64,000 nucleotides of DNA from the NCBI GenBank assembly GCA_947074105.1, contig CAMTON010000006.1, forward strand, positions 3,445-67,444, given 5' to 3'. The translations under genes were made by a program, and so were the position numbers. Shown one piece after another: positions 3,676-40,577 of the stretch. Numbering within the stretch: position 1 is the first letter of the stretch; each line of letters starts with the position of its first letter. A model generated the notes under the pieces. The model made no database searches, was not told the DNA's origin, and was given only the letters and a program-made list of their open reading frames with translations. Source of the DNA: an uncultured Bacteroidales bacterium. GTDB lineage: Bacteria; Bacteroidota; Bacteroidia; Bacteroidales; JAUNSR01.

Positions 3676-3720
3676 ACGGCAACGATGCCAAAACTTCTAA
3701 ATGTTTGGCATCGTTACCGT
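3676..3720. terminator. 17-bp stem hairpin between convergent genes
   Basis: ACGGCAACGATGCCAAA (3676-3692) pairs with TTTGGCATCGTTACCGT (3704-3720) with one mismatch. It lies between the stop at 3669 (+) and the stop at 3722 (-). Confidence 0.55.
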
Positions 3721-3721
3721 T

Positions 3722-4498
3722 TTAAATAAGTTCTATTTCCTCAATCAATTCTCCTCTTCTCATTCTCTGTCTCAACGACATCATTCTTGAATCATAGGAC
3801 TCAAGTATTCCGAGGTTTGATTTTTCTTTATCTGTTCTTTCAATAATACTCATTATACCTCCGTTACGGATGACCAGACGCTTATCAGCCATAAGAGCAA
3901 GAATAGGATCATGAGTAGCCATGAGAACAATCTTTTCATTACGCATCAGAAGACTTATTGCATTCTTTCTGTCGATTCCCGCATTCTCTATTTCATCGAT
4001 AAGGACAACGGGAGAGGCACTCAGAGAGGCAGTATCGGCAATCATCAGAGCGCGGCTCTGGCCCCCGCTTAAAGCGGTAAGAGGAGTATTATGATCAAAC
4101 TTCTCCCCTGCCAGTTCATTAGCCTGATCTACCACGATATCAATTATATCATCATTATTTATATTTCGGCTTTCGGCATGCATTCTTATAAATTCACTTA
4201 CCGTAACATCCATAACGAAATTCATATTCTGTGATAACTGTGCGACGAGTTTATTTTCCAGAGAAAAACGGTCGTCTATCGAAAGAGTTCTTCCGTCAAT
4301 AAGAACACGCCGCTTTGTCGGAGTGTCACCCTGTGCAATCCATTCAATATCCGCCAGCAACCTGCTTTTTCCCGACCCTGTCGGACCAACAATACTCGTC
4401 ACACTTCCTTTATGAAGAGTAAGCTCATCCATATCCGGCATTTCGGGATTTCCGGATTTATCAAACCCGGGCAGAATCGTTATTTTATCTATATTCAT
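3722..4498 (-). CDS. soluble ABC-type ATPase with no cognate permease in the operon
   Basis: Walker A GPTGSGKS, signature LSGGQ, Walker B VVLIDE, H-loop ATHD. Atypical D-loop region IENAGID and a charged C-terminal extension. Confidence 0.8.
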   Translation of the reverse strand: MNIDKITILPGFDKSGNPEMPDMDELTLHKGSVTSIVGPTGSGKSRLLADIEWIAQGDTPTKRRVLIDGRTLSIDDRFSLENKLVAQLSQNMNFVMDVTVSEFIRMHAESRNINNDDIIDIVVDQANELAGEKFDHNTPLTALSGGQSRALMIADTASLSASPVVLIDEIENAGIDRKNAISLLMRNEKIVLMATHDPILALMADKRLVIRNGGIMSIIERTDKEKSNLGILESYDSRMMSLRQRMRRGELIEEIELI

Positions 4499-4513
4499 AA
4501 TTCCGGTTTAGTA

Positions 4514-5197
4514 TTATATTGTTATTTTCTTAACGTTGCCAACCTGATAATCCTGACCTATTTTTGTCTCACCCAGACAGTAAGAACAAATTGAAGCAGG
4601 CATAGAGAAACGCAGTCCGCCTCCGATAAGAGTTTCAACTTCCGCCGCATCCTCCAGTAGTGTGGATAATTCAAATGCGCCCTGACCCGTTATTCCGTTT
4701 ACCGACATGATATAAGCCTTTGAATTCTGTTTTCTTATATGATAAGCAAACACTTCACGTTCAGCCTGTGATACGATATCACCTTTTGTCACCACGACAA
4801 TATCGGCATAACGAAGCATGGGACCGATCTTTTTCGGCGTATTCACACCCATAAGATTGTCAATAACACATACTGCCTTTACTTTCTTGACATGAGGCGA
4901 ACATCTGTTACACAATCCCGCACTTTCTGTTATGAGTATATCCAGATTATGCTTTTTCCCCCATTCCAGGCATTCCTCAATATTGCTTACAAAATAATGA
5001 TCGGGACAGAAATGCCCGGCAAGTCCTACTTTAACGGGAATACCGTTTGCCTTGAAACGCTGATCATCTTCCGTCGAAAGACAATCGAATTTTATAACAC
5101 CGACATTATATTTTTGCCAGTAAGGGGATTTTATCAGATTGATAATTATTGATGTTTTACCGGTTGACGGAGGACCGGCTACTGTAATAAGCTTCAT
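4514..5197 (-). CDS. G3E-family (HypB/UreG/CobW-like) P-loop GTPase, putative metallochaperone
   Basis: P-loop GPPSTGKTS at the N-terminus, ESAGLCNRCSP switch/metal-like motif, TKGD in place of NKxD, C-terminal CSYC. Confidence 0.6.
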   Translation of the reverse strand: MKLITVAGPPSTGKTSIIINLIKSPYWQKYNVGVIKFDCLSTEDDQRFKANGIPVKVGLAGHFCPDHYFVSNIEECLEWGKKHNLDILITESAGLCNRCSPHVKKVKAVCVIDNLMGVNTPKKIGPMLRYADIVVVTKGDIVSQAEREVFAYHIRKQNSKAYIMSVNGITGQGAFELSTLLEDAAEVETLIGGGLRFSMPASICSYCLGETKIGQDYQVGNVKKITI

Positions 5198-5208
5198 ATT
5201 ATATTCCC

Positions 5209-6234
5209 TTATATTGTTTCATAATCAAAAACTTCGAGCTTCGCCTCGAAAGCTTCTGTCAGTTCCTTATCAAAAACCATCTGATCTTTCTGAAGTATAT
5301 TATCCCAATCAGGAAAATAAGCCGGTTCATCCCAGTTAAAAGACGCAGGAGGATAATATCCGGATTTTTTCAGCAGATCGGAAAGAGAATCCATATCAAA
5401 AAACTCCAGCAGACCTTCAGCCTTCTTCATAGCATCTGATTTCACATATATAAGAAGAGGAGATATTATATCTCCCTCTTTAAGCTGTATCGGTAAAGCC
5501 GAGAATTTAGCCGGTATCTGATTTGCGATGACTGCCGGCAGAATATAATATACAGTAGACTGAGGGTCAACTGCACCTATAGCCTTTATAATATTAGAAA
5601 AATGCTTCACTCCTTTCAGGTTCTCTCCGAATTTCACAAGCCCCTCCATACCGAATTTCTCATAATAATAATGATGAACGGCACTGATTATGGTATGACC
5701 TTCATGACCGTGCATTGTCACAAGACCCTTGAATTCCGGCTTCAGCAGATCATCCCAGGATGAAGCTCTCGGAGTATCATCTTTAAGTTTACGGGTATCG
5801 ACAACAAGCTGCCAGCTTCCTAATCCGAGCATCCCGAAACCGTATTTATCCATTACACTTTTCAGATGTTCCGGGATAAACGGCTTCTGTGATTCCGGAG
5901 TATATCCTTTTAGAATACCGCTTTCCATAAAACGTGTACGGAAAGGAGCCGAATAGTTTGTACCGAATCCGGTTGACAGGAAAAGATCCGGAAGTTCATT
6001 TTCCTCCGTTATGTCTTTTATTACCGCACCTATCCGCTTATGGGCATCAAGCTGTACAGTCGGACAATAAACAGGCATATATTCTTTTTCCTCATACTCA
6101 TTAAGAAATTCCAGAAATATATCGCCGAAACGGTTCTTCATTGGACATGGCATTGAAGCAAAGAAATTAATATGCCCCTCTTTACACACAGGTACATCCT
6201 GCTGCATGAATTCTTCAGATGTTGACTTTTCCAT
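5209..6234 (-). CDS. signal-less solute-binding-protein-like protein (type II SBP-like), paralog of 35069-36319
   Basis: No signal peptide. Clear alignment blocks with the 416-aa protein: EENELPDLFLSTGFGTNYSAPFRTRFMESG vs EEEELPDILIGKGFSTLMSRHFTDRFIKTG, and YYYEKFGMEGLVKFGEN vs YLYKEFGEKGIRDYANS. Confidence 0.5.
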   Translation of the reverse strand: MEKSTSEEFMQQDVPVCKEGHINFFASMPCPMKNRFGDIFLEFLNEYEEKEYMPVYCPTVQLDAHKRIGAVIKDITEENELPDLFLSTGFGTNYSAPFRTRFMESGILKGYTPESQKPFIPEHLKSVMDKYGFGMLGLGSWQLVVDTRKLKDDTPRASSWDDLLKPEFKGLVTMHGHEGHTIISAVHHYYYEKFGMEGLVKFGENLKGVKHFSNIIKAIGAVDPQSTVYYILPAVIANQIPAKFSALPIQLKEGDIISPLLIYVKSDAMKKAEGLLEFFDMDSLSDLLKKSGYYPPASFNWDEPAYFPDWDNILQKDQMVFDKELTEAFEAKLEVFDYETI

Positions 6235-6246
6235 ATTCTCTCATTT

Positions 6247-7269
6247 TTAATAAACAGTCGGATTTAATATCTTTTCCGCCTCTTCAGGGCTCAGGTCATA
6301 GTGATAGAATAATTTGAAATATTCACACGTAACATCATTAATATCCCATTTGAAATGTTTCGGATGAAGAGTGTTGAATGTCCATAAGAGTCCGAGAATT
6401 CTGTTTGAACCCGGAGGACGGTCAAACCAGCCAAAAGGTAAAAGAGGTATCTGAAATATATTACCTGTCTTACACGCAGAAACCGACGACCATAATTCGT
6501 TTCCTTTGATTTCATTATATGTAGGCAGATCAGGACCGCTTCCTGTCCAGCAGATAATTTTTTCAGGATTCCATACCATGATCTGTTCAAGAGAAACCTC
6601 TGACATCCCTTTTCCCGGAACTATTTTAGACTCCGCCACATTTCTTGCACCCACCAGTTCCAGTATCTGGCTGTGTTTCGATCCTGAAGGGTCGGTATTA
6701 AGACCTTTTGGCCCTTCTGCATAATAAACGGCGGGAATTTCCTTTTCAGAAAAAGAAGAAGCTGTTTTCATCACTTCATCACAATATTTAGTGATGAAAC
6801 CGTTCAGAAGCTCCGCTCTTTTCTCTAACCCCAATACATCACCAAGCATAGTGATAGTCTTTTTATAAGACAGTATGTTCATGTCATACATTAAAACAGG
6901 AATGCCAAGTCTCTGCTGCATGCTCTCGGCCTGATCCATAGCTCTTTCAGATAATTCATCCGACAATATTATGACATCAGGATTTAATTTAAGAATGTCC
7001 TCATATGCACCAAGCTCTATGCATGGTTTTGCCAGATAAGATGCTGGGAAAAACTTTTCTGCAGGTTTTGAAAAATTAAAGATCCTGTTTGAAGCGATAT
7101 CCTGATCAAGTGCATAAAGCAGTATTGCCGAATGACGGTCAACAAATATATTTCCGACACTATCGGGTATAATCACTTCGCGACCAAGCATATCCGTGAC
7201 TTTTCTTTCCGCAAAAAGGTTTATCAGGCAAAACAGAGAAAGTAGTAATATCGTATATCTTTTTATCAT
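6247..7269 (-). CDS. periplasmic class-III (FecB/BtuF/HemT-type) substrate-binding protein
   Basis: Signal peptide. N-terminal RKVTDMLGREVIIPD, NPDVIILSD, and C-terminal FGWFDRPPGSNRILGLLW motif typical of Peripla_BP_2 siderophore/heme/corrinoid binders. Confidence 0.8.
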   Translation of the reverse strand: MIKRYTILLLSLFCLINLFAERKVTDMLGREVIIPDSVGNIFVDRHSAILLYALDQDIASNRIFNFSKPAEKFFPASYLAKPCIELGAYEDILKLNPDVIILSDELSERAMDQAESMQQRLGIPVLMYDMNILSYKKTITMLGDVLGLEKRAELLNGFITKYCDEVMKTASSFSEKEIPAVYYAEGPKGLNTDPSGSKHSQILELVGARNVAESKIVPGKGMSEVSLEQIMVWNPEKIICWTGSGPDLPTYNEIKGNELWSSVSACKTGNIFQIPLLPFGWFDRPPGSNRILGLLWTFNTLHPKHFKWDINDVTCEYFKLFYHYDLSPEEAEKILNPTVY

Positions 7270-7282
7270 AATCTAACCATAA

Positions 7283-7900
7283 CTATTTTTGAAAAATTAT
7301 CCAGAAACCTTTTTCGGTTCTTGAGGCTTCTCCTTTAACTCCCATTTCATCTATCATTTTCTGATACTCCTCAACAGGGATCTCTTTACGACAGGGCGCT
7401 GATTCCAGGCCGGGATTTCCTTCTTTCACCCGTTTATTGTGAATACGTTCCTGAAGTTCCTTACACCCGAAACCGCCTCCGATATAAGCCCAGCCGCCAG
7501 GTTTTAAAATACGGAAAACTTCATTCAGCCCTTTTTTCTGATCTTCCCAGAAAAATATGGAACCGCGACTTGCAACAAGGTCGACTGAACCGGATTCAAA
7601 ATATGTCATATCTTCGGCCATGCCTCTCACCGCATCCATCCTGTCGGCAAGTTCATATTCAGAAATATTCTCTTTTGCCACGATAACGCAATCTTCAAGC
7701 AGATCATATGCCGTAACATTAAGATCCGATATTCTTGCAAGTTCGATACCAAGCATTCCGGGGCCGCTTCCGAGATCGACACAGACGCCTGAACTTACTC
7801 CCGTTCTTTCTATTATCTGTTTTGCTATCAGAGGATATACCTCCGCGAAATAACCTTTCATCACATTTTGGTTATATTCTCTTGCATCCATATTATACAT
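7283..7900 (-). CDS. class I SAM-dependent methyltransferase
   Basis: Motif I VDLGSGPGMLG, acidic loop AYDLLED, and post-I/II motifs (LKPGGWAYIGG). Confidence 0.8.
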   Translation of the reverse strand: MYNMDAREYNQNVMKGYFAEVYPLIAKQIIERTGVSSGVCVDLGSGPGMLGIELARISDLNVTAYDLLEDCVIVAKENISEYELADRMDAVRGMAEDMTYFESGSVDLVASRGSIFFWEDQKKGLNEVFRILKPGGWAYIGGGFGCKELQERIHNKRVKEGNPGLESAPCRKEIPVEEYQKMIDEMGVKGEASRTEKGFWIIFQK

Positions 7901-7912
7901 AAACTTACCTTT

Positions 7913-9886
7913 TTAGATATTAAACTTCAGGCCGATTGTAAGACGTGTTCCCTGATCAGGATATACAGGCGACATTGTGCAGTATTTCTTATTGAAAATA
8001 TTTTTCACGTCACCGTAAACAGATACCGGAATCACAGGAATCTTATAAGTCAGATTAGCGTCAAAATTGTAATAATCACCGATTTTTGTATCCGGATAAC
8101 CCGGAGATGTAGGTTTCACAAAACGGTTGTTTATATATTCGCTGACATAGCGTCCCATTATATTAAGAGTTGCGCCGTATTTTGAATATGTAAGACCCGC
8201 GCTTGCTATAAATTGAGGAGCGCCTTTATACTTGACACCTGTTTCTTCCTCGATATAGCATTCCGAAGCATTGGCAAAACCTGAAAGAGAATTAAAGAAT
8301 GTCTTCGACTTAAATCCGACCTCAATACCTATTCTTTTCAGATCATTTACAGTATAATAATATGCATTGGATACAGATGTCGAATTCGGCACCTCTTCAT
8401 CTCCCATTGTATAAGCATTTTTGCTGTCATGGAAATATCCCGTTACAGTAAACATCCCCAGACACGGTACATTGATATTTGAGCCAAGCTCTACAGATTT
8501 ACGTTTTTCATCCTGAAGATTGATTGGATTTCCGTCGCTGTCTTTTGTCATGGCATTTACCGGTGCTGCGATACGACCGATACTTCCCACAAGGTTAAGT
8601 GCCACATTTTTGCTTACAGGCAACGTAAAACCTATGTTTCCGTTGAAATATCCCGGCTGCCATTCATCTGCTACACCGTTATAATCCGAATAATGTTCTT
8701 TTATATATTTTACTCCAAGGTCAATACTACCTCTTTTGAATTTGTGCTCATCGATAAATGCGAACATCATCTTCTCCCTTTTTCCGATTGAAACACTTGT
8801 ATTATAATAGTTCTCTCCCGTAATTATGTAATAATCACCCGCAAGTCTCATTGTATTGTTTTTGCAGAGATTTACAGTCTGGACAAGACTGAAGTCGGTA
8901 GTATAAAGGCTTTCATTAGAAACTTTATTTCCGTTATCAAATTTCCTGTTATCAGCATAATAATAATAACGGAATTCAGTCGAACCGAATTTGCCTTCAT
9001 CGAAATGAACTTTGGCTATACTAGCCTGTATCTTCTGAGGATCATATTTCCATGTCTGAGCCTTGTTTGCTGCAATAAGCTCGCCGTTATCCTGAGATAT
9101 TAAGAACTGACGTGAACCGGTAATATAAAACTGCTGATATTCCAGATATATTTTTTTTGTAACATCAAAACGAACCTTACCATACAGATTCCAGCGATGT
9201 TCTGCACCGTTAAGATCTTTAGGACCGTCGGTATCGTCTCTTGTGACACTTGCCACATATCTTAAACCTTTTATCTTATCACCGATTATAGCGGATGCTC
9301 TTGTTGTATTGAAAGTTCCGTATGAAGCATTGACTCCGATATGAGTCTTATCAAAATATTTCGTTTTCAGATTTACCGAACTGTTTAAACCTGTACCTCC
9401 GTAAGCAAGTGAATTTGAAGATCTGGTAACTTCAATTTCTTCAAGCATATCTGTCGATAAAGATGTCGGACCGTCATAAAAGTTCATCAGTGTCATTCCG
9501 TCTATAGCATATTCCGAACTCTGACCTCTTACATAAAAAAATTCTTTGTGTTTTCGCCCCTGCTCTCTCACCTCACCACCCAGAGTATATTTCAAAGCAG
9601 ACGAAAGATTGGTTGCACCTATATTTTCTATATCAAGCGAAGTTATTTTAGATACCATTGTACTCCATGATTTAGGCTGTTCCGCAACATTATCTTTTAT
9701 ATTTCTGTTTGCAACTACCTCTACACCTTCGAGGCTTCTGTCGACTGTAGTATCAGCGGGAATTCCTGTTTCTGTAGAATTCTGTGCCATTGAAACTCCT
9801 CCGGCAGTAATTAAAACGATAGACGAAGCCAGCCTTTTTAAGTTTCTTTTTTCTCTCTTAATTGATTTACCTCTTAAAATTTTCAT
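7913..9886 (-). CDS. TonB-dependent receptor
   Basis: 657 aa with a signal sequence, a plug region (LEGVEVVANR...TSLDIENIGATNLSSALKY) and a C-terminal beta-barrel ending ...RLTIGLKFNI. First gene of a six-gene operon with 11-15 nt gaps. Confidence 0.85.
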   Translation of the reverse strand: MKILRGKSIKREKRNLKRLASSIVLITAGGVSMAQNSTETGIPADTTVDRSLEGVEVVANRNIKDNVAEQPKSWSTMVSKITSLDIENIGATNLSSALKYTLGGEVREQGRKHKEFFYVRGQSSEYAIDGMTLMNFYDGPTSLSTDMLEEIEVTRSSNSLAYGGTGLNSSVNLKTKYFDKTHIGVNASYGTFNTTRASAIIGDKIKGLRYVASVTRDDTDGPKDLNGAEHRWNLYGKVRFDVTKKIYLEYQQFYITGSRQFLISQDNGELIAANKAQTWKYDPQKIQASIAKVHFDEGKFGSTEFRYYYYADNRKFDNGNKVSNESLYTTDFSLVQTVNLCKNNTMRLAGDYYIITGENYYNTSVSIGKREKMMFAFIDEHKFKRGSIDLGVKYIKEHYSDYNGVADEWQPGYFNGNIGFTLPVSKNVALNLVGSIGRIAAPVNAMTKDSDGNPINLQDEKRKSVELGSNINVPCLGMFTVTGYFHDSKNAYTMGDEEVPNSTSVSNAYYYTVNDLKRIGIEVGFKSKTFFNSLSGFANASECYIEEETGVKYKGAPQFIASAGLTYSKYGATLNIMGRYVSEYINNRFVKPTSPGYPDTKIGDYYNFDANLTYKIPVIPVSVYGDVKNIFNKKYCTMSPVYPDQGTRLTIGLKFNI

Positions 9887-10123
9887 ACCACATTAATTAA
9901 TTGATTTAACCTTAAACACACCGATATCCATTTTTATTATAACGGATATTACTTAAATCACAATTAATATGCCACGATAAACACTTTTATCATATATTCT
10001 TGATATTCAAACCATTAACACAAACACAACAATGATCAAAAATTTCCTAAATGTAATATCCATATATAACCATACATTTATGTAGTCTTTTTAAGGATCC
10101 CGGGAAGCATCCGAACGATAGCC

Positions 10124-10198
10124 TTACGGAGCGCCTCCGGCTTGCGGACGGAGGCACATAGAACTTCTGACGGAAGTCAGTAATAATCCTCTCCGTAA
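10124..10198 (-). ncRNA. candidate structured 5' leader (three-way junction) upstream of the TonB-receptor operon
   Basis: 8-bp closing helix TTACGGAG/CTCCGTAA (10124-10131 / 10191-10198). It encloses hairpins GCCTCCG-N9-CGGAGGC (10133-10155) and CTGAC-N4-GTCAG (10167-10180). It is a GC-rich island in an AT-rich 730-bp intergenic region. No known riboswitch consensus recognised. Confidence 0.3.
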
Positions 10199-10632
10199 TC
10201 GTAAGTGTCATTTCCGGAAGTCGCATTAAAAGATCCGGCGTATTTATAATTATACAGTTTTTCCTGATTATGAATAATAAAGATTGATTTGGAAATTCAT
10301 AATATGTTCGTATAGATTTTATATATTTACAATAACTTTTAAACACCGGAATATATATCTACATAAATATGATCAGCTAATCAGAAAAGCTGCAGAATAG
10401 AAGTTCATCTTTTTCCGTTAACGAATTTACAGGAACATCTTATAATATATCTCTGTAATTTAGCACATTATCGAAATGACAATAATTTATAATTTCATAA
10501 ATTATGATACAGTTTGAAGAATATTAATATATAAACTACCGGTTTTATTTTAATACTATATTAAACCAATTATTAACCAATACAGGAATTCAATCTGTTA
10601 CATGACATTGATTCTTGAAAAACAAAAGTTAC

Positions 10633-12911: not shown

Positions 12912-14147
12912 TTATTCAAATTCCGCAATAGTATGTTTTATTATATCGATACACTCCATCAACTGTTCTTCTGTGATAACAAGAGGAGGAGCAAATCTGA
13001 TGATATTCGTATGTGTCGGTTTTGCCAGCAAACCGTTGTCCGCAAGTTTCAGGCATATATCCCAGGCAAGATCTTTCTGAGAAGAATTATTGATAACAAG
13101 TGCATTCAAAAGTCCTTTTCCTCTTATATAATCGGCAATTTCTGATTTAGCACATAATTTTTCTATTTCGCTACGGAATATTTTCCCGAGTCTTTCCGCA
13201 TTTTCTGCAAGTTTCTCATCCTTTACAACGTTAAGAGCTTCAGTAGCAACCTGTGCTGCAAGAGGATTGCCTCCGAAAGTAGACCCATGCTGTCCGGGAC
13301 GTATCACATCCATTATTTCATTATCCGCAAAAACGGCAGAAACAGGGATTACACCTCCCGAAATTGCTTTTCCTAAAATAAGTATATCAGGGTGTACATT
13401 TTCATGATCGCATGCAAGAAGACGGCCTGTTCTTGCTATTCCAGTCTGCACCTCATCGGCAATGAAAAGTACGTTATGCTTCTTACAAAGATCATAACAG
13501 CTCTTCAGATAACCATCATGAGGGACATAAACTCCAGCCTCACCCTGTATCGGTTCGACAAGGAAACCGGCAATATTGGGGTTATTTTCAAGTACTTCTT
13601 TCAGTGCATCCACATTATCATAAGGGATTACCGTGAAACCCGGAGTATAAGGACCGTAGTTATCATAAGCGTCAGGATCTACTGAGAAAGAGATGATACT
13701 TATCGTTCTTCCGTGAAAGTTATTGCGGCAAACCACAATTTCAGCTTTTCCCTTTTCAACGCCTTTCTTTTCATAAGCCCATTTACGACAAAGTTTCATT
13801 GCTGTCTCAACAGCTTCGGCACCTGTATTCATCGGAAGAAGTTTGTCATAACCGAAATATTCAGTTGCCATTTTCTCATAATTTCCAAGGCGGTTATTAT
13901 AGAAGGCTCTTGATGTAAGAGTCAGGAGCTGAGCCTGATCAGTAAGAGCTTTTATTATACGCGGATGGCAATGACCCTGATTTACTGCAGAGTAAGCAGA
14001 AAGGAAGTCAAAATACTGTTTTCCTTCTACATCCCAGACAAAAACACCTTTTCCTTTTTCAAGCACAACAGGAAGCGGATGATAGTTATGTGCTCCATAA
14101 TGATGTTCAAGTTCCATCATCTGGTTTGCAATAGAGTTATTATTCAT
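12912..14147 (-). CDS. rocD: ornithine--oxo-acid aminotransferase
   Basis: 411 aa. [49 protein letters not shown] and DEVQTG...GKAISGG are hallmark class-III aminotransferase/OAT blocks. Confidence 0.85.
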
Positions 14148-14153
14148 TATTAT

Positions 14154-15086
14154 TTAAGAATTAAACGGATTATAAATTTCTGCCATCATACACCTTACAC
14201 TTCCGCCACCATAAAACTCAATGGTCGGGATATTTACCGGAATAAGACGGTTGTAAGAACTAAGTCGGTTAATCTGTTCCTGAAAGAGAGATTTACAGGC
14301 AGAACCGGAGAGAATAAGTAAAGGTTCATCATTAGCACCTTTTATCTGGAGCATATTTCCGGCGAAATTATGAATCTGCTGTTCTGTAAGCTCTATGATC
14401 TCCTTTCCTGATTCAGAGATTGTCTTTTTAAGTTTTTCTCTTTCTTCTTTATTATCAATACATTCAAGACAAACTACAGTGAATTTATCGCCGACACACA
14501 TCATGACATTTGTATGATATATAGGTTTTCTTTCCTCTCCTACTGTCTGATATGCAGTAAAAGAACACGGATTATATCCGAAATCATTACAGAACTTTTC
14601 AAGAAGCGCTTTATCTGTTCTTTTAGAAATAGCAGCATATGCAATCTTATTTTCTCTGTCAAGGACCATGCTTCCTGTGCCTTCAAGAAAAGATGGCATC
14701 TTCCTTTTTTCTGCATCGGTATAATCAATGATATCATTGATTATCAGGCCTTCCCTTTTCAGTACTTCAAGAATATCCACTCTTCTTTCAAGGCGTCTGT
14801 TTTCTGCTAACATAGGATATAAAGCGACATTTCCCGATTCGTGAAAACTTATCCAGTTGTTAGGGAATATAGAATCCGGAGTATGCGGAGATAGTGTGTC
14901 GGCAACAGATATCACATTTACACCAAGAATTCTCAATGTCTGAACCATAGTGTCGTATTCATTCAGTGCTTTATTCTGAATTTCCTGAGCCGGAGTCATT
15001 TCTTTCTTCTGAAAAAAATTATCCTTCGCCGTATCTTCATTAAAGCCGAACGCGACAGGCTGTATCATTAATATATTAGAAGTCAT
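14154..15086 (-). CDS. ctlX: citrulline utilization hydrolase CtlX-like (amidinotransferase/DDAH superfamily)
   Basis: N-terminus ILMIQPVAFGFNEDTAKDNFFQ and C-terminal catalytic GGGSVRCMMAEI. Confidence 0.6.
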   Translation of the reverse strand: MTSNILMIQPVAFGFNEDTAKDNFFQKKEMTPAQEIQNKALNEYDTMVQTLRILGVNVISVADTLSPHTPDSIFPNNWISFHESGNVALYPMLAENRRLERRVDILEVLKREGLIINDIIDYTDAEKRKMPSFLEGTGSMVLDRENKIAYAAISKRTDKALLEKFCNDFGYNPCSFTAYQTVGEERKPIYHTNVMMCVGDKFTVVCLECIDNKEEREKLKKTISESGKEIIELTEQQIHNFAGNMLQIKGANDEPLLILSGSACKSLFQEQINRLSSYNRLIPVNIPTIEFYGGGSVRCMMAEIYNPFNS

Positions 15087-15119
15087 AATTGAAAGATTTT
15101 GGAATTATTCGAATGGAAA

Positions 15120-16040
15120 CTATTCGTCTTTTCTTATAAGAGGTAGTGTAGAACATCTCAGCAGTCCACCCATTTTTGAAATTTCATGATATGGTATTCT
15201 TTCAACCATGATATTCCATTTATCTTCAAGATGTCGGTTAAGTCGCTCAAAACGCGCTTCACTAACAACAATTTCAGGAGATATTGAAAAGATATTTGAG
15301 TTCATGTAATACATCTCTTCTGTTGTGATCTCAAACAGATTTTCCTTCCCGAAAATATCACATATACGTTTATATGATTCAGGGTTAAGAAAGCCGTCTT
15401 TATAAATTATCGCCTTATCCTTTCCGACAGGCATAAATGTACAGTCAAGGTGAAGTATTCCTTTTCTAGGATCTGTGTTATCTTTCTTAAGATCAAAAGC
15501 AATGAAAGTCTTTTCCGGACATATATCCTTAAGAAATTCAAAAGCATACATGTTTGTCCTTGCTGTTTTCATCTTAGGATAATCCGGCTGATTATAAGTA
15601 CCAACAAATACCAGATCATTGTATAGTACGACGTCACCACCTTCTACATGGGCTTTTTCCGGAAGATTAAAAATCTTATTATAGGATATCTGAGTATATA
15701 TATTCTCATAAGCCTCTTTTTCATCTTCGCGGTCCGGAATGATATTTGAAACGATAATCTTGTCATTGATAACAAAGCCTACATCTCTCGCAAAAACCTG
15801 GTTGCAGTCGCTTAGCATCCATGGACGGAATACCTGAACGTTATGTTTTTTAAGAACTCTGTCAAACATCGTCATTTCCTTAAACACATCTTCTTCTCTG
15901 GGATATGTTCCGAGAATTACCGATTCATAAGACTTTGCATCATAAGTTTCTTTTAAAGTGGGAGTTTTTCCCAGTGAAGCCGGTTGGCCCAATACCACAG
16001 CCTGTAATTTAGAAGTCTCGTTATTTATATGTAATTGCAT
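15120..16040 (-). CDS. arginine deiminase/dimethylarginine dimethylaminohydrolase-family (amidinotransferase fold) protein
   Basis: C-terminal GGLLRCSTLPL catalytic Cys motif and HLDCTF block. ATG 16040 (MQLHINNETSKL...) is preferred over the upstream track start. Confidence 0.65.
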   Translation of the reverse strand: MQLHINNETSKLQAVVLGQPASLGKTPTLKETYDAKSYESVILGTYPREEDVFKEMTMFDRVLKKHNVQVFRPWMLSDCNQVFARDVGFVINDKIIVSNIIPDREDEKEAYENIYTQISYNKIFNLPEKAHVEGGDVVLYNDLVFVGTYNQPDYPKMKTARTNMYAFEFLKDICPEKTFIAFDLKKDNTDPRKGILHLDCTFMPVGKDKAIIYKDGFLNPESYKRICDIFGKENLFEITTEEMYYMNSNIFSISPEIVVSEARFERLNRHLEDKWNIMVERIPYHEISKMGGLLRCSTLPLIRKDE

Positions 16041-16208
16041 AAACTTGCTATTTTTATGCAAATGTATATTTTTATCATAAAAATACAAAAAGAAGTCAAA
16101 AAAAATTCAAACTTTTTTTTGACAACTGTAAATCAACCTTTTAATAAAACTTATTATTTTCTGAGTCAGATAATATTTACCGGCTGGAAAAAATAGCCGG
16201 ATTATTTT

Positions 16209-33023: not shown

Positions 33024-35057
33024 ATGAGATTTATAACTATCATATTATTAATTTTCTTTTCGGCAGCCGAAACTTTTTGTATATCATTATCCGCTGATCA
33101 TAATGAGCCCGATTCAATTATCCGGCGTAATCTTAGTGAGGTTACAGTTTCTGGCTCGCGATCTGAATCGCTTATTATGATCAATGCAGTCACTATGAGA
33201 GCTTCGGAAATAGAAGAGGTCAATACAGAAAATTTCATTAATGTGGTAGAACAGCTACCGGGAATAATGAAAATTCACGAAGCAACTTTTCCTTTAATAA
33301 TAAGAGGAATGTACGGCAGCCGTATCCATGTGGAAAAAAACGGAATTATAAAGACCGGAATAAGCCAGACAGGATATTCTCTTGAGGATATCAATCCTTC
33401 TGATGTATCAGAAGTAAGTCTTATACATGGCAGCCGTAACATAATTTTCGGTAGTGGCAGTATCGGAGGAGTTCTACTTATAAATGAAAAAGTTGATTTC
33501 AGTAAAAAAGGATTCAATGCACGGCTAAAAACTTCTTTCGCAACAAATAATAATGAGAATTCTTATAATCTGCGTCTCGGATATACCGGCGCAAAAGATC
33601 TTATCAATATAACGGGCCGATACACAAAAGCTTCAGATCTTCATTATTCTCATAAAGAAAAAGCTGAAAATTCTTCTTATGAATATAAGAATCTGTCTTC
33701 AAAATATGTACGTCTGTTTCCCGCACTAAATATGACACTCAGCTGGGACAATGCCTATTATAGTGGTAAGCGTGATAAACCGCTCGGGTTTCAGAATAAT
33801 CCGTATGATTTCCGCTCCTTCAATGACAGATATAATTTTGAATCTTCCCTTAAGTTAAAAGTTAACGGAACAACTTCCATTTTCAATGGGAATGTCTGGT
33901 ATAATACTCTTAATACGGATCAGAGCCAGGATCAGTATAATGCAGGCACAAAGAAACTTGCTTTCAGGGAGATACGGCAGTCATATAAAAACAGTGCCGG
34001 CGCAAGGGCTGATATGACATTCAATTTCATAAAAAACTGGACACTACAATCTGGATGTGATATTTTTTATGATGATCTGCGTCAGGATAAAGAATATGAG
34101 GATATCATTCGTGATACACGGAGTTTCTATAAAGATTTCTCCGGTCAGCGTCAGAATATTTATGGCTTGTTTCTTTTTTCCGAATACGAGAGCCAAAAGC
34201 ATAAAATAGGAATAAGTCTCAGGGGCGACATAGGCAGGATACATAAGGATAGTATAACATCCGATCTTTATAAAAATATTACAGGAGGAATAGACTGGGA
34301 TTATACGATAAGAAAATATCTTATCAGCCGCTTCAGCGTGAGCCGTCATTTCCGTTTTCCCATACCTATGGAAGCTGTTGGTGTTTTCTACGGAGGACGT
34401 GGTACTTTTGTCGGAAATCCGGACATTAATCCCGAGACATCTTATAATATAGAATACAAACTCTCCTATTCAGGTCGCTGCCTGCTGATGACAGCTAACT
34501 TCTGGACTTCCTTATTTTTTGACCGCATCAATGAGCAGGAAATCTTCACCAATAAATATACTTATATCAATATTGACAAGGCGCGACTTTACGGCTTCGA
34601 AGGTTCGCTTAATCTTTTTTGCGGCAAAGTGCGAACCACGGGAAAAGCCGATCTTCTTATAACGGCTCATTATGCTTATGGTGACGATGTAAGTGAAAAA
34701 GGTTTTTTCTCTAAAGGAACATATCTGGAGGGAATTCCTCCCGGGCGAATAAGTTCCCGCCTGAAATATACAATACGCGTCAAAGGGATTGAAACGTATG
34801 CTTCAGGGCGCTTCAGCTACATAGCATCTTATGACAGGCTTCCTGAAGAAGCGGTTACCAATACATGGGGACAAAATGCAAGAAACGCTTATCCATTTTG
34901 GGATGCCGGCGCGGGAATAAAGTTCTGTACTCTTTTTAACGGAATAAATCTTGATTTCACTGTCAATAATATGCTTGACAGAAGCTATCAGCCTTATGGC
35001 GGCTATCTGAAAGGTATGGGACGCAACTTTAAAACAACATTATCTTTTAATTTCTAA
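33024..35057 (+). CDS. TonB-dependent receptor
   Basis: 677 aa with a signal sequence, a plug (LSEVTVSGSR...IIRGMYGSRIHVEKNGI) and a barrel ending NFKTTLSFNF. Confidence 0.85.
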   Translation: MRFITIILLIFFSAAETFCISLSADHNEPDSIIRRNLSEVTVSGSRSESLIMINAVTMRASEIEEVNTENFINVVEQLPGIMKIHEATFPLIIRGMYGSRIHVEKNGIIKTGISQTGYSLEDINPSDVSEVSLIHGSRNIIFGSGSIGGVLLINEKVDFSKKGFNARLKTSFATNNNENSYNLRLGYTGAKDLINITGRYTKASDLHYSHKEKAENSSYEYKNLSSKYVRLFPALNMTLSWDNAYYSGKRDKPLGFQNNPYDFRSFNDRYNFESSLKLKVNGTTSIFNGNVWYNTLNTDQSQDQYNAGTKKLAFREIRQSYKNSAGARADMTFNFIKNWTLQSGCDIFYDDLRQDKEYEDIIRDTRSFYKDFSGQRQNIYGLFLFSEYESQKHKIGISLRGDIGRIHKDSITSDLYKNITGGIDWDYTIRKYLISRFSVSRHFRFPIPMEAVGVFYGGRGTFVGNPDINPETSYNIEYKLSYSGRCLLMTANFWTSLFFDRINEQEIFTNKYTYINIDKARLYGFEGSLNLFCGKVRTTGKADLLITAHYAYGDDVSEKGFFSKGTYLEGIPPGRISSRLKYTIRVKGIETYASGRFSYIASYDRLPEEAVTNTWGQNARNAYPFWDAGAGIKFCTLFNGINLDFTVNNMLDRSYQPYGGYLKGMGRNFKTTLSFNF

Positions 35058-35068
35058 ACGTAACAGAC

Positions 35069-36319
35069 ATGGAACAGATAACTTCTGAAAGTAATCTAAA
35101 AGAGATGATTGAAACATATACCCCGACTTACAGGGTGTTACTTATGAACGGAATAAAAGTGAATCCTTTTAATATAGAAATCGATATGAAAGTAGGGGAT
35201 GTCACTGCCGGACACAATAATGAACAGATGGTTTATGAGCATCTCAACAAAGTGAAAGATATGCAGGATAATAAGACCGACAAACTTGACTTTGTTAAAC
35301 GAAACATTATCAAGCCTGACAAAATCAACATTTCAGGGTTTACGGATTTTATCTGGCATGATCAGTTTATGGAAGAGATCCACAGTTTCTGCGAAGAAAG
35401 TAAAATAGATATCAATCCTTTGTTTTTTTCCAAATATGATAAAAAGAGCCTTCAGCTGTATCTGTGTAAATGCCGTAATGAAGAAGAATTGCCTGATATA
35501 CTTATCGGAAAAGGATTCAGCACACTTATGTCTCGTCATTTTACCGATCGCTTCATAAAGACAGGAGTATTCGACCGTAAACTTGATGTAAATATAAAAG
35601 ATCTGTGGTATGAGGCGGGAATAAAGGATCCGGCAGACAGATATCATGTATTCGGAGTACAGGAGGATATGATCATGCAGGACATGTCGATAAAGACAGA
35701 TGTTGCGCCACCGAAAAGATGGAGCGATTTACAGAAACCTGAATATTATAATACGGTAACACAGATGGGAAAACCACAGAGAGACCACTTCGGATTTAAT
35801 ACTATGTTTTATCTGTATAAGGAGTTCGGAGAAAAAGGGATTCGCGATTACGCCAATTCGGTGAAATATAAATGGCACTTCTCACGGATAGTAAAAGATC
35901 TTGGAAAGGAAAGCCCATCGTCCTCTCCATATAATGTGGTACATAGTTTCGCAACATTATTCTTTCGCAATAATCCTGTGGCAAAAGTTCTGAGGCCTAC
36001 AGACGGCAATCCGGTAACATCGGTGTTCTGTCTCGTAAAAAAGAATGCACCGGAAGGTGCGGTAAAGATTGCCCAACATCTTTTCTCCGAAAAGATAGGT
36101 CGCATATTAACCTCTACAGCCGGTATAATAAGTGCTAATCCTGCACTTGCCGACAATCAGGATCTTAAGATAAGATGGATAGGATGGGATAATATAATGA
36201 ATTCCACGCTGCCCTATCTGAAAGACGATCTTAGCGAGATAGCATATAGTGTATATGACAGAAAAGAGATAAAGGATAATCACGGAAATAAAATAAATAA
36301 AAAAAATTGTCTGGTATGA
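35069..36319 (+). CDS. signal-less SBP-like protein with DUF1858/ScdA_N-like N-terminal domain; paralog of 5209-6234
   Basis: Shares alignment blocks with the 341-aa protein. The extra approx 75-aa N-terminus (NLKEMIETYTPTYRVLLMNGIKV...QMVYEHLNK) resembles DUF1858 but lacks Cys. Confidence 0.5.
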   Translation: MEQITSESNLKEMIETYTPTYRVLLMNGIKVNPFNIEIDMKVGDVTAGHNNEQMVYEHLNKVKDMQDNKTDKLDFVKRNIIKPDKINISGFTDFIWHDQFMEEIHSFCEESKIDINPLFFSKYDKKSLQLYLCKCRNEEELPDILIGKGFSTLMSRHFTDRFIKTGVFDRKLDVNIKDLWYEAGIKDPADRYHVFGVQEDMIMQDMSIKTDVAPPKRWSDLQKPEYYNTVTQMGKPQRDHFGFNTMFYLYKEFGEKGIRDYANSVKYKWHFSRIVKDLGKESPSSSPYNVVHSFATLFFRNNPVAKVLRPTDGNPVTSVFCLVKKNAPEGAVKIAQHLFSEKIGRILTSTAGIISANPALADNQDLKIRWIGWDNIMNSTLPYLKDDLSEIAYSVYDRKEIKDNHGNKINKKNCLV

Positions 36320-37311
36320 AAAAGCATGAAATTAAAAGAGTTCTGAATTTATTACTGATCACATTGATTACATTATCCGGTCTTTCCGCACGTGAAATAA
36401 CAGATATGGCGGGAAGAAAAGTAAATATCCCGGATGATATCACCGCAGTACTTCCCCATGATGAAAAGACGGGAATTCTTATTTATCCTGTGCTGACAGA
36501 TATGATGATTGGGAGATGTATAAATTCACACAGTAATAAAATGAATAATATAAGTGATGAATATAAAGCTTTAAAAGATTACGATATAAGAAATCATGAG
36601 GATATCATCATGGCACGTCCCGATATTATACTTGCAGGATGCTTCATCCCGGAAAATTATGACCGTTATGACAGATTAAGCGCAAAACTGAATATTCCTT
36701 TTGTCGTAATAGATATGAATACAATGTCAATTCCCGCAACTTATGATTTTTTAGAAAATCTCATCGGCAAGACCAATGAACGGGCAAAAGACTGTAAGCA
36801 TTTCCTGAATGATTTTTTTAAAGATCTTGAAGATATGAAAGCGGCAAATAAAGATAAAATACCGGGTGTTTATCTTGCAATGAGTGAAGACGGCCTTAAA
36901 ACCGCACCATCAGGAAGCCGACATTCTCAGATACTGGATATAATGGGAATTACAAATATTGCTGATACCGATATTCCCACAAAAGGTCTTGCTTCTGTAT
37001 CAATGGAACAAATCATGATGTGGAAACCGGAATATATTTTCACTGTAACCAAAGAAGGCAAAAGTTCCTACGGCAATATATGTTCATCTGCATTATGGAA
37101 AGATATTCCCGCCGTAAATAACGGAAAAGTATATGATATATGTGAAGATCCGTATTCATGGTTCGGCAATCCTCCGTCCATAAATATCATACCGGGTATG
37201 ATAATGCTTTCAGGGATGTTTTATGATATGCCGCAGGACGTAGCAAAAGATAAAATAAAAGAATTCTATAATTTATTTTATGGAGTGGATATCTCCCATC
37301 TCAATTATTAA
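36316..37311 (+). CDS. periplasmic class-III (FecB/BtuF/HemT-type) substrate-binding protein; paralog of 6247-7269
   Basis: AREITDMAGRKVNIPDD, RPDIILAG, and WFGNPPSINIIPG motif. ATGA start/stop overlap with the upstream gene (ATG 36316, TGA 36317-36319). Confidence 0.8.
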   Translation: MKKHEIKRVLNLLLITLITLSGLSAREITDMAGRKVNIPDDITAVLPHDEKTGILIYPVLTDMMIGRCINSHSNKMNNISDEYKALKDYDIRNHEDIIMARPDIILAGCFIPENYDRYDRLSAKLNIPFVVIDMNTMSIPATYDFLENLIGKTNERAKDCKHFLNDFFKDLEDMKAANKDKIPGVYLAMSEDGLKTAPSGSRHSQILDIMGITNIADTDIPTKGLASVSMEQIMMWKPEYIFTVTKEGKSSYGNICSSALWKDIPAVNNGKVYDICEDPYSWFGNPPSINIIPGMIMLSGMFYDMPQDVAKDKIKEFYNLFYGVDISHLNY

Positions 37312-38242: not shown

Positions 38243-38794
38243 ATGAATTTAGAAGAACTCAGAACCGATTGTTCTTTAAAACAAAAAAAAGGATTGCATT
38301 TTATTCTGGCATCGATAGTGATATGGTGCGCAATCTTAGTTGTACAATTATTGGAAATTCCCGTATTGACAAAAAATCTGCTCACCTTTTGTTGCACCGC
38401 TCCCCTTGCACCTCTGGCTTTCCTGATCTCTAAAATGATTAAGGTTGATTTTCAGAGTAAAGAAAATCCACTTACCAATCTTGGTATTTTATTTGCCCTT
38501 AACCAGATTGTCTATCTTTTAATCGCTATGTGGATCTACTATGAGATGCCAGACAAGATGATTATGGTGATTGCCATTATTTTCGGAGCACATCTTATGC
38601 CTTTCAGCTGGCTTTACAGATCAAAGACATATCTTATTTTATCTATAGTCATTCCTGTTGCTTCATTAATAGCGGGATTAAATTTTCCTCCTTACATATT
38701 GGCAATAATGATGATAGCTTTTGAAATGATATTCAGCGTTTGTTTAATATTTGAAAATAAAATGCTGAAAGAATCAGAACAGACTGTATCTTAA
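38243..38794 (+). CDS. small integral membrane protein (about 5 TM)
   Basis: Hydrophobic segment pattern only. Confidence 0.5.
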   Translation: MNLEELRTDCSLKQKKGLHFILASIVIWCAILVVQLLEIPVLTKNLLTFCCTAPLAPLAFLISKMIKVDFQSKENPLTNLGILFALNQIVYLLIAMWIYYEMPDKMIMVIAIIFGAHLMPFSWLYRSKTYLILSIVIPVASLIAGLNFPPYILAIMMIAFEMIFSVCLIFENKMLKESEQTVS

Positions 38795-40533: not shown

Positions 40534-40577
40534 TATCAAATTTTTTCGCAAAAATATTTAGAAAAAAAACAACTGTA

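Follow-up and report, generated by a model that had tools for sequence, protein, structure and literature searches.

A cytoplasmic binding-protein-fold, GTPase and ABC ATPase module joined to TonB-dependent uptake genes in an uncultured Bacteroidales bacterium

Within a 64,000-nt stretch of DNA from an uncultured Bacteroidales bacterium (GTDB lineage JAUNSR01; GenBank assembly GCA_947074105.1, contig CAMTON010000006.1, positions 3,445 to 67,444, forward strand), referred to in its full length as the window, six genes of the minus strand encode a TonB-dependent outer-membrane receptor, an S-adenosylmethionine (SAM)-dependent methyltransferase (MTase), a periplasmic binding protein (PBP) of class III, a cytoplasmic protein with the fold of a solute-binding protein (SBP), a G3E GTPase and a soluble ABC-type ATPase. 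These genes are one operon, composed of two conserved blocks, and the last three of them (SBP-like, GTPase and ATPase, hereafter the trio) are a conserved module and not a truncated importer: all three are present in 77 of 80 loci sampled from more than 10 bacterial phyla, and in 73 of the 80 they are adjacent, in the order SBP-like-GTPase-ATPase. The parts all come from known superfamilies, and the general kind of system, a G3E-GTPase metallochaperone with TonB-dependent uptake, is also known; G3E GTPases control the insertion of nickel (hydrogenase, urease), cobalt (B12) and zinc. The novelty lies in the architecture, in which a UreG/HypB-like GTPase and a soluble ABC ATPase are combined with an SBP-fold carrier of the cytoplasm, and of which no description was found in the literature searched.

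Layout of the operon and conservation of the trio

The six open reading frames (ORFs; Table 1) are separated by spacers of 15, 11, 12, 13 and 12 nt, counting from the ATPase gene towards the receptor gene. Judged from the translations, signal sequences are present in the receptor and the Peripla_BP_2 protein and absent from the SBP_bac_6 protein, the GTPase, the ATPase and the MTase. An earlier note on this DNA, made by a model from the letters alone, had proposed a single operon with this gene content, and its coordinates, strand and gaps of 11-15 nt stand as given; the Pfam scan recovered all of the families that it had predicted. Its remark that no permease is encoded holds for the six genes and, by tblastn with six FecCD representatives (E<=1e-4), for the whole 64-kb window, where no match was obtained; the inner-membrane step is thus encoded elsewhere or dispensable. 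The note had also set the combination apart from characterised uptake operons, which agrees with our finding that no NCBIfam model reached its cutoff for any of the six proteins, and with a literature search on the trio architecture that found no description of it and no curated family or solved structure covering the module. The CODH-associated ABC transporters (PMC13592312), considered as a possible precedent, are a different, complete NitT/TauT-type system. Compared with btuB-btuFCD, the window operon lacks a cobalamin riboswitch (Rfam, upstream region, E<=1); as for hmuYRSTUV, the Pfam scan gave no CobN/Mg-chelatase domain in the six proteins, nor any domain outside the families of Table 1, HmuY not having been searched by name.

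Table 1. Positions of the operon genes, of the adjoining non-coding features and of a second SBP-like cluster in the window.
Feature	Position	Strand	Remarks
TonB-dependent outer-membrane receptor, 657 aa	7913..9886	-	First operon gene; signal sequence; TonB Plug 1.3e-11
Class I SAM-dependent MTase, 205 aa	7283..7900	-	Cytoplasmic; MMP1179 type; Methyltransf_11/25
Periplasmic class III binder (Peripla_BP_2), 340 aa	6247..7269	-	Signal peptide; PF01497 5.2e-22
Cytoplasmic SBP-fold protein (SBP_bac_6), 341 aa	5209..6234	-	No signal peptide; PF13343 3.3e-42
G3E P-loop GTPase, 227 aa	4514..5197	-	UreG/HypB branch; Cys-rich; PF02492 (cobW/HypB/UreG) 6.3e-12
Soluble ABC-type ATPase, 258 aa	3722..4498	-	Last operon gene; no membrane domain; PF00005 (ABC_tran) 6.8e-16
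Terminator-like hairpin	3677..3690	-	~30 nt past the ATPase stop codon; probable operon end, weak
Intergenic region upstream of the operon	9887..10614	-	Promoter/operator region; 728 nt
Lipoprotein-like ORF, 230 aa	32314-33006	+	Second cluster
TonB-dependent receptor	33024-35057	+	Second cluster; full-length on heme-receptor model, 142 bits, below cutoff
Paralogous cytoplasmic SBP_bac_6 protein, 416 aa	35069..36319	+	Second cluster; N-terminal extension of ~70 residues
Second Peripla_BP_2 protein	36307-37311	+	Second cluster

Loci of the trio were retrieved with an alignment of the GTPase in a scan of one genome per GTDB species, in which relatives of this protein were found in at least 563 species genomes; 80 genome loci were fetched, and a locus of the methanogen Methanolobus mangrovi (L009) was found separately. 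The genomes with a GTPase relative come from Bacteroidales, Chlorobiaceae, Ignavibacteria, Gamma- and Betaproteobacteria, Desulfuromonadales/Geobacter, Clostridia/Tissierellia, Actinomycetes/Coriobacteriales, Spirochaetes, Acidobacteriota, Deferribacterales, Fibrobacteres and Krumholzibacteriota, and start and stop codons of the trio genes overlap in many loci. In the distant loci looked up, those of Celerinatantimonas and M. mangrovi, the three genes are again found side by side, and the GTPases and ATPases are 56-70% identical to the window proteins. Compared with their window counterparts, the GTPases of the 80 loci have a median identity of 65% and the ATPases one of 62%, as against 23% for the SBP-like proteins; as the first two are constrained and the third is divergent, we read the pair as an engine and the SBP-like protein as its fast-evolving, probably cargo-specific partner. 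The latter may act as a variable “adaptor”, that is, as an exchangeable specificity subunit. Two SBP-like genes accompany a single GTPase-ATPase pair in several loci (L017, L059, L095, L117 and L125). In NCBI annotations the three proteins bear generic names (“ABC transporter substrate-binding protein”, “GTP-binding protein” and “ATP-binding cassette domain-containing protein”).

With respect to the operon as a whole, an identical six-gene set is found in a related Bacteroidales metagenome-assembled genome (MAG; L010), and the five-gene block MTase-PBP-SBPlike-GTPase-ATPase occurs in Chlorobiaceae genomes and in at least 20 metagenome contigs; since the six genes recur in L010, and the five-gene block and the trio elsewhere, the arrangement is not a product of chance. 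The earlier note had treated all six genes as the unit: conservation of the neighbourhood, which it had proposed to check, is borne out by the counts given above for the trio, and the full set of six turned out not to be general.

Proteins of the trio and of the uptake block

The SBP-like protein has no solved sequence relative better than E 3e-4. Its AlphaFold2 (AF2) model (pLDDT 94) is a two-lobed type II binding protein, and the Foldseek comparison suggested in the earlier note returned an SBP fold nearest to ferric-binding proteins, with FbpA/FutA on top (E about 1e-11), followed by PotD, P5PA, AfuA and TbpA (TM 0.5-0.62, identity 12-16%). Among 119 aligned homologues, His211 is kept in 119, Trp160 in 118 and Lys217 in 109, and Cys30, within the motif P-C-P-x-K/R, in 113 of 115; Cys30 and His211 are, from this conservation, candidate ligand residues. 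In the AF2 model, Cys30 opens the first helix after strand 1, and His211 opens the helix that follows a strand of the C-lobe, positions which we take to be topologically equivalent to those of the FbpA ligands His9 and Tyr195/196 on the basis of a secondary-structure comparison and not of a superposition. Besides this predicted likeness in fold to the FbpA/FutA/SfuA proteins (cluster D), the SBP-like protein differs from them in being cytoplasmic, in its low identity, in offering Cys/His instead of His/Glu/Tyr/Tyr, and in having a GTPase and a soluble ATPase as partners; no FbpB-type permease is found among the operon proteins or the recurrent neighbours. Its cytoplasmic location, already proposed in the earlier note, is supported by the homologues, none of which has a signal peptide in the alignment of 119. 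An N-terminal extension matching the DUF1858 region, missing in the window protein, is present in 55 of 88 SBP-like homologues from genome-derived loci. A word-indexed search with the window protein retrieved four relatives, and an exhaustive profile search 231 clusters; one of the four, with only 24% identity, carries DUF1858 at its N-terminus, and downstream of its gene come those of a cobW-type GTPase and of an ABC ATPase, the stop codon of one trio gene overlapping the start codon of the next.

The GTPase was placed in the earlier note among the metallochaperone type, and both its sequence and its fold are nearest to UreG and HypB. It scores 52 bits on the curated hypB model (cutoff 121.2) and 36.6 bits on ureG (cutoff 204.2), and Foldseek ranks UreG and HypB on top for the G3E domain of its model (TM 0.62-0.77). 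The nucleotide-binding motifs GPPSTGKT (P-loop), ESAG (switch II) and TKGD (NKxD-type) are present, the segment C64-P-D-H67 aligns with Ni/Zn ligands (CPH of UreG, CH of HypB), and E91SAGLC96NRC99 aligns with the switch II region; residues C39, C64, H67, C96, C99, C110 and the C-terminal C204xxC207 are invariant in 29 sequences. COG0523/CobW traits are missing, as there is no CxCC (the region reads GLCNRCSP) and PF02492 is the only domain matched, with no CobW_C. The family comprises at least 6488 protein clusters at E<=1e-20, and identity to the window protein is 62-70% in 79 genome loci across phyla and 62% for the Methanolobus protein. Thus, the GTPase resembles the UreG-UreEFD and HypB-HypA systems in fold, in nucleotide motifs, in the Cys-Pro-(Asp)-His element and in being a dedicated GTPase with accessory genes, and departs from them in its below-cutoff scores, its extra invariant cysteines and its C-terminal CxxC; furthermore, it is accompanied by an SBP-fold protein and an ABC ATPase where those systems have UreE/F/D or HypA.

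For the ATPase, the best NCBIfam score is 57 bits against transporter cutoffs above 200, scores on heme and corrinoid ABC ATPase models are 44-51 bits (cutoffs 261-537), and the best PDB sequence relative is EcfA1 (E 8e-12). Walker A, Q-loop, LSGGQ, Walker B and H-loop are all invariant, and identity to the window protein is 57-70% in 77 genome loci. In 78 of 83 ATPase relatives (e.g., L006 11703-12719 and L009 9942-10943), ~85 aa at the N-terminus form a domain for which hhalign (93%, E 4e-7) shows homology to the DUF1858 (ScdA_N-like) domain on the SBP-like partner; the ATPase and the SBP-like protein of the window both lack DUF1858 domains, which makes the Bacteroidales form the most reduced one. 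The earlier observation that this ATPase has no permease partner extends to most of its relatives, since about 60 of the 80 loci show no conserved membrane protein. Where FecCD genes are present, the ATPase beside them scores 25-32 bits on a trio-ATPase profile, on which trio ATPases reach 360-570 bits; as FecCD brings its own canonical ATPase, the trio ATPase is additional to the importer and not a subunit left behind by one. By analogy, it might be compared with SufC (SufBC2D) and with component A2 of methyl-coenzyme M reductase activation, membrane-less ABC proteins that work with metal-handling proteins, from which it differs in that no sequence relation beyond the ABC fold was shown and no SufB/SufD-like partner accompanies the trio.

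Upstream of the trio, the second block consists of the receptor, the MTase and the periplasmic binder. The receptor shows weak, partial similarity to heme/hemoglobin receptor models (38 bits, cutoff 317), and has no PDB sequence relative at E<=1e-3; it is close to the receptor of the related MAG (1283 of 1485 self-score bits) and is not orthologous to the receptors of the Chlorobi loci. The MTase is an orthologue of Methanococcus maripaludis MMP1179 (PDB 3dlc, E 5e-44), a protein solved by structural genomics, whose function is unknown and whose substrate cavity is large (PMC5289526). Its orthologues, 40-53% identical, lie directly upstream of the PBP gene in loci of Chlorobiaceae, Ignavibacteria and Bacillota, and among 80 metagenome loci, collected in a scan with the MTase alignment, the family adjoins Peripla_BP_2 and/or FecCD genes in most of the longer ones; more distant relatives are found with Peripla_BP_2 and FecCD and without the trio. 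The periplasmic binder has orthologues (29-43% identity) in 12 genome loci. Its nearest PDB relative is 4pag (1e-33), followed by the unliganded “iron complex” binders 2etv and 4hn9, and further by MolA/HI_1472 (2e-14), IsdE (4e-6), CeuE/NikZ-type proteins (1e-5) and BtuF (7e-4). We know of no ligand for 4pag.

In the metagenome contigs, FecCD, a canonical ATPase and often a receptor precede the five-gene block. FecCD is adjacent in 12 of the 80 genome loci and in most of the close metagenome relatives, and wherever it is present its own canonical ATPase follows. The earlier note had stated that an adjacent permease in orthologous loci would mark the operon as a truncated ordinary importer: such a permease does occur in these loci, and the ATPase that comes with it leaves no truncated importer. 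The operon resembles type II ABC importers (BtuCD-F, FecBCDE, MolBC-A) behind TonB-dependent receptors in combining a receptor and a Peripla_BP_2 protein, to which the related loci add FecCD and a canonical ATPase; the window lacks both, and the operon ATPase belongs to a separate, highly conserved soluble family that is mostly transporterless. In the same contigs a SUMT-like methylase often adjoins the receptor, and mod genes are often close. Genes for this TP_methylase (~150 bits, just below the cutoff of 185 for uroporphyrinogen-III methyltransferase) stand directly beside the receptor of such extended systems in L040, L052, L060, L017, L091, L094, L095, L099, L101 and L122, which represent Chlorobiaceae, Ignavibacteria and metagenomes of lakes or sediments. 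In a Paludibacter MAG (L056 11674-12201), the genes for the trio ATPase and FecCD have between them one for a TsaA/TrmO-family protein (134 bits, above cutoff), and another such gene lies near the trio in a Bacillota MAG (L078 1388-1900); the latter also has a guanidine-I riboswitch (L078 683-785; 77.7 bits, above the gathering score) ~7 kb upstream of the trio, to which it is probably unrelated.

Neighbours, regulation and other genes of the window

The neighbourhood of the trio was surveyed by de novo clustering of all ORFs in the 80 genome loci, followed by profile confirmation. Most genomes have no transporter near the trio, which is most strongly associated with hcp, with HcpR-type regulators and boxes, and with modABC. 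The commonest neighbour, in 32 of the 80 loci, is a protein of ~80 aa with two CxxC motifs, encoded right after the ATPase; hybrid cluster protein (hcp) genes follow with 21 loci, Peripla_BP_2 with 13, FecCD and TonB-dependent receptors with 12 each, MMP1179-type MTases and Crp/Fnr regulators with 10 each, modA/modB with 9-10, the SUMT-like TP_methylase with five, and NifB and YgbA_NO with four each. None of these is found in 20 loci. The double-CxxC protein is on the same strand as the ATPase (within L019-L089, e.g., L053 11707-11949), has no Pfam or NCBIfam family and is missing from the window; possibly the module has in it a fourth member.

The product of the neighbouring hcp gene is a true Hcp, with 848 bits on its own model (cutoff 367) vs. 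33 bits on the CODH model. In Clostridia its gene lies after the ATPase gene on the same strand, apparently in the same operon, and in Desulfuromonadales it is divergent from the SBP-like gene. An unbiased count of palindromes upstream of the SBP-like genes brought out GTAAC-N4-GTTAC and TTGAC/TTGAT-N4 boxes, which are the HcpR2 and HcpR1 consensus motifs (PMC1274295). When the 260 nt upstream of the SBP-like genes of L011-L089 were searched, the HcpR motifs GTAACnnnnGTTAC and TTGACnnnnGTCAA, with <=1 mismatch, turned up in 7 and 17 of the 71 regions, where shuffled sequence gave 0.55 and 0.35. The loci concerned belong to Clostridia, Desulfuromonadales, Deferribacteres, Acidobacteriota and one Bacteroidota genome, and include some with no hcp nearby. 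From these sequence motifs, the majority form of the trio is predicted to be a member of NO-responsive/FNR-type regulons. A role as a general Hcp maturation factor was considered and rejected, as hcp is near only about a quarter of the trio loci and as organisms such as E. coli have Hcp and are not known to have the trio. With YtfE/RIC (ScdA) and the NO-responsive HcpR/NsrR regulons the trio shares the DUF1858 (ScdA_N-like) domain, carried in most relatives by both the SBP-like protein and the ATPase, and a placement with hcp, YgbA_NO and Crp/Fnr genes behind HcpR-type boxes; it differs from YtfE/RIC in lacking the hemerythrin di-iron domain, and the window form also lacks DUF1858 and a recognisable HcpR box.

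Upstream of the window operon, the blocks shared with the related MAG L010 include the ~130 nt that immediately precede the start codon and, at 10086-10073, the palindrome ACTACATAAATGTA. A GC-rich insert of ~120 nt (about 10100-10215), missing in that MAG, holds the perfect palindrome CTGACTTCCGTCAG; a structured RNA was rejected here, as the insert has no Rfam match and its predicted fold is barely better than that of shuffled sequence (z -1.69). No Rfam family was found in the window at the gathering score or in the upstream region at E<=1, and no cobalamin, Moco or NiCo riboswitch in seven related loci, so that control by a cobalamin or other riboswitch was rejected. A ModE-box reading of the AT-rich upstream region was dropped as well, the near match seen by eye not being conserved in L010. 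At the other end, terminator-like hits are no more numerous than expected from shuffling, and the hairpin is no more than consistent with the operon end. The flanking genes (flavodoxin, cNMP-binding protein, MatE pump and beta-lactamase-fold esterase) are kept solely in same-species contigs and look unrelated to the operon. Membership in anti-phage defence was also rejected: PADLOC returned generic, partial matches for the ABC ATPase and the MTase, and nothing for the GTPase, the SBP-like protein, the binder or the receptor.

A second cluster in the window includes a paralogous SBP_bac_6 protein and has no GTPase or ATPase of its own; a similar arrangement is found in L007. Pfam finds only SBP_bac_6 in the 416-aa paralogue, and its extension was read as DUF1858-like from the sequence; His211 and Trp160 are kept, and the position of Cys30 is occupied by Phe. 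This protein is possibly a second adaptor for the single GTPase/ATPase pair. Genes for DUF7010 and PepSY_TM proteins lie near the cluster, at 38243-38794 (+) and 38995-40551 (-). Elsewhere in the window, consecutive genes at 12912-16088 (-) for a class III aminotransferase, a DDAH-type amidinotransferase-fold protein and an arginine-deiminase-like protein look like an arginine/citrulline-related cluster, unrelated to the trio.

Interpretation, alternatives and significance

We read the trio as a nucleotide-driven cytoplasmic hand-off machine for a metal or a small metal centre, a reading that we put at somewhat under an even chance; iron or an iron-containing chelate is the cargo that we favour, with still more reserve. 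Five observations speak for iron: the SBP-like protein folds like ferric-binding proteins, the ScdA_N-like domains also occur in the iron-centre repair proteins RIC/YtfE, the context is one of Hcp and NO, the periplasmic binder has relatives of the iron-complex type, and a PepSY_TM gene is a neighbour. The three proteins would make up a self-contained cytoplasmic machine of many anaerobes, and not an importer. In it, the cleft of the SBP-fold protein would hold a metal-containing ligand via Cys30 and His211, aided by Lys/Arg33, Lys217 and Trp160. The GTPase, presumably dimeric like UreG and HypB and with its invariant Cys/His residues at the dimer interface, would use these residues to take up or deliver the metal or a small Fe-S unit. 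A dimer of the soluble ABC ATPase would provide the power stroke, by which the carrier is opened or closed or the product set free. The GTPase-ATPase pair would thus be a conserved engine, and the SBP-fold protein a swappable carrier. In most lineages the module would serve an internal client, being induced together with hcp by HcpR/FNR-type regulators under nitrosative or anaerobic stress, and would repair or supply iron centres in a role comparable to that of YtfE/RIC. In the Bacteroidales genome it would be fed by the receptor, the class III binder and the MTase: a metal chelate, most probably containing iron, would cross the outer membrane and be bound in the periplasm, and would then pass an inner-membrane step encoded elsewhere, for which the relatives use FecCD and its own ATPase. 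The metal would be passed to the trio, and the MTase might modify the emptied or incoming organic ligand; the analogy is with ferrichrome, which is acylated after iron release. We infer the interaction among the three proteins, the direction of transfer, and the identity of the metal and its ligand.

Several points weigh against this reading. The nearest relatives of the GTPase handle nickel. The MolA relative of the binder and the mod neighbours (modABC, modD and modE in about 10 of the 80 genome loci and 8 of the 80 metagenome loci) point to molybdenum or tungsten, and the SUMT-like methylase and the heme-receptor-like second receptor point to a tetrapyrrole. The window has no inner-membrane transporter, and its form of the trio, which lacks an HcpR box and DUF1858 domains, may work differently from the majority form; the best candidates for an HcpR/FNR box at the window operon have 2 mismatches and are not conserved in L010. 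Furthermore, we know of no such trio in E. coli or Desulfovibrio, which have Hcp.

If the cargo were molybdenum or tungsten, the receptor, the MolA-like binder and a FecCD-type permease would import molybdate or tungstate, or else a chelated or thio form as it exists in sulfidic habitats, and the trio would store or process it for cofactor synthesis. Genuine modA (220 bits, cutoff 62.5), modD and ModE-type genes do occur beside the trio or the MTase-PBP importer: modABC is directly upstream, on the same strand, of the trio genes in L049 and L059 (Bacillota) and of the extended cluster in L017, and in Vibrio (L031) a ModE gene precedes the receptor. MolA is among the relatives of the binder, and the SBP_bac_6 fold class is related to that of ModA. 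Nonetheless, we consider this alternative unlikely, given that Cys/His residues such as those of the SBP-like cleft and of the GTPase are better suited to cations or clusters than to oxyanions, that the hcp neighbour contains no molybdenum, that the HcpR boxes would be left without explanation, and that neither the window nor the seven related loci have a Moco riboswitch; besides, mod genes often lie beside nif genes and metal islands, and their proximity to the trio may be indirect. Salvage or processing of a tetrapyrrole, which the earlier note had put forward, seems to us similarly improbable. Here a heme, corrinoid or sirohydrochlorin-type compound would be imported, held in the cytoplasm by Cys/His axial ligands of the SBP-fold protein, and metallated, demetallated or methylated with the aid of the GTPase, the ATPase and the MTase. 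Some weak support for it can be found in the SUMT-like TP_methylase gene that immediately precedes the receptor gene in loci of Chlorobiaceae, of Ignavibacteria and from metagenomes, in the second receptor of the window, in the HemT/IsdE and BtuF members of the class III binders, and in the large cavity of the MTase type; many Bacteroidales, moreover, need external heme. The proposal is countered by the absence of a cobalamin riboswitch in the window and the seven related loci, by scores on heme and B12 models that are all far below cutoff, and by the lack of a chelatase, HmuS/CobN or heme-degrading enzyme among the operon proteins and the annotated recurrent neighbours, in addition to which about 75% of the trio loci have no importer or tetrapyrrole gene nearby.

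The kinship of the GTPase with UreG and HypB, together with its conserved Ni-binding CPH/CH motif, would also fit a third nickel chaperone of this type, serving some Ni/Co enzyme with a complex imported by the receptor and the binder, which is distantly related to CeuE/NikZ-type binders of Ni complexes. We regard this as very unlikely: no hydrogenase, urease or CODH, and no maturation gene for hydrogenase or urease, is among the annotated recurrent neighbour clusters of the 80 loci, where the Prismane-family protein is Hcp and not CODH, and no NiCo riboswitch was found in the window or the seven related loci. Least credible of all, and already largely refuted, is an ordinary ABC importer whose permease has been lost or is encoded elsewhere, with the ATPase as nucleotide-binding subunit and the SBP_bac_6 protein as exported binder. 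The domain names would suit it, an SBP and an ABC ATPase being encoded in close vicinity, as would the adjacency of FecCD in some relatives; against this stand the absence of signal peptides from the aligned SBP-like homologues, the cytoplasmic DUF1858 domains on both the SBP-like protein and the ATPase, the G3E GTPase gene that always lies between their genes, the lack of a conserved permease in most loci, the separate ATPase and class III binder that FecCD has where it is present, and the distance of the trio ATPase from every transporter model cutoff.

Returning to the hand-off machine, the trio could represent a new class of cytoplasmic metallocentre machines of anaerobic Bacteria and Archaea, in which an SBP fold has become an intracellular carrier, swappable carriers share one engine and the ATPase acts on the carrier instead of a permease, a proposal that we advance as a possibility well short of probable. 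The interchangeable carriers would serve to repair or supply iron centres under NO stress, or would receive what a TonB-dependent importer delivers, as in the window operon. If this is true, the trio adds a third UreG/HypB-type lineage, with thousands of clusters in anaerobes, 62-70% identity between phyla and an archaeal copy. That it repeatedly lies with hcp, HcpR boxes and YgbA hints at a part, so far unrecognised, of how gut, oral and sediment anaerobes respond to nitrosative stress, and its joining to TonB-dependent uptake in Bacteroidales and Chlorobi points to a new path by which import leads to the delivery of metal inside the cell. It would also give annotation pipelines a testable assignment for the generically named genes of the trio.

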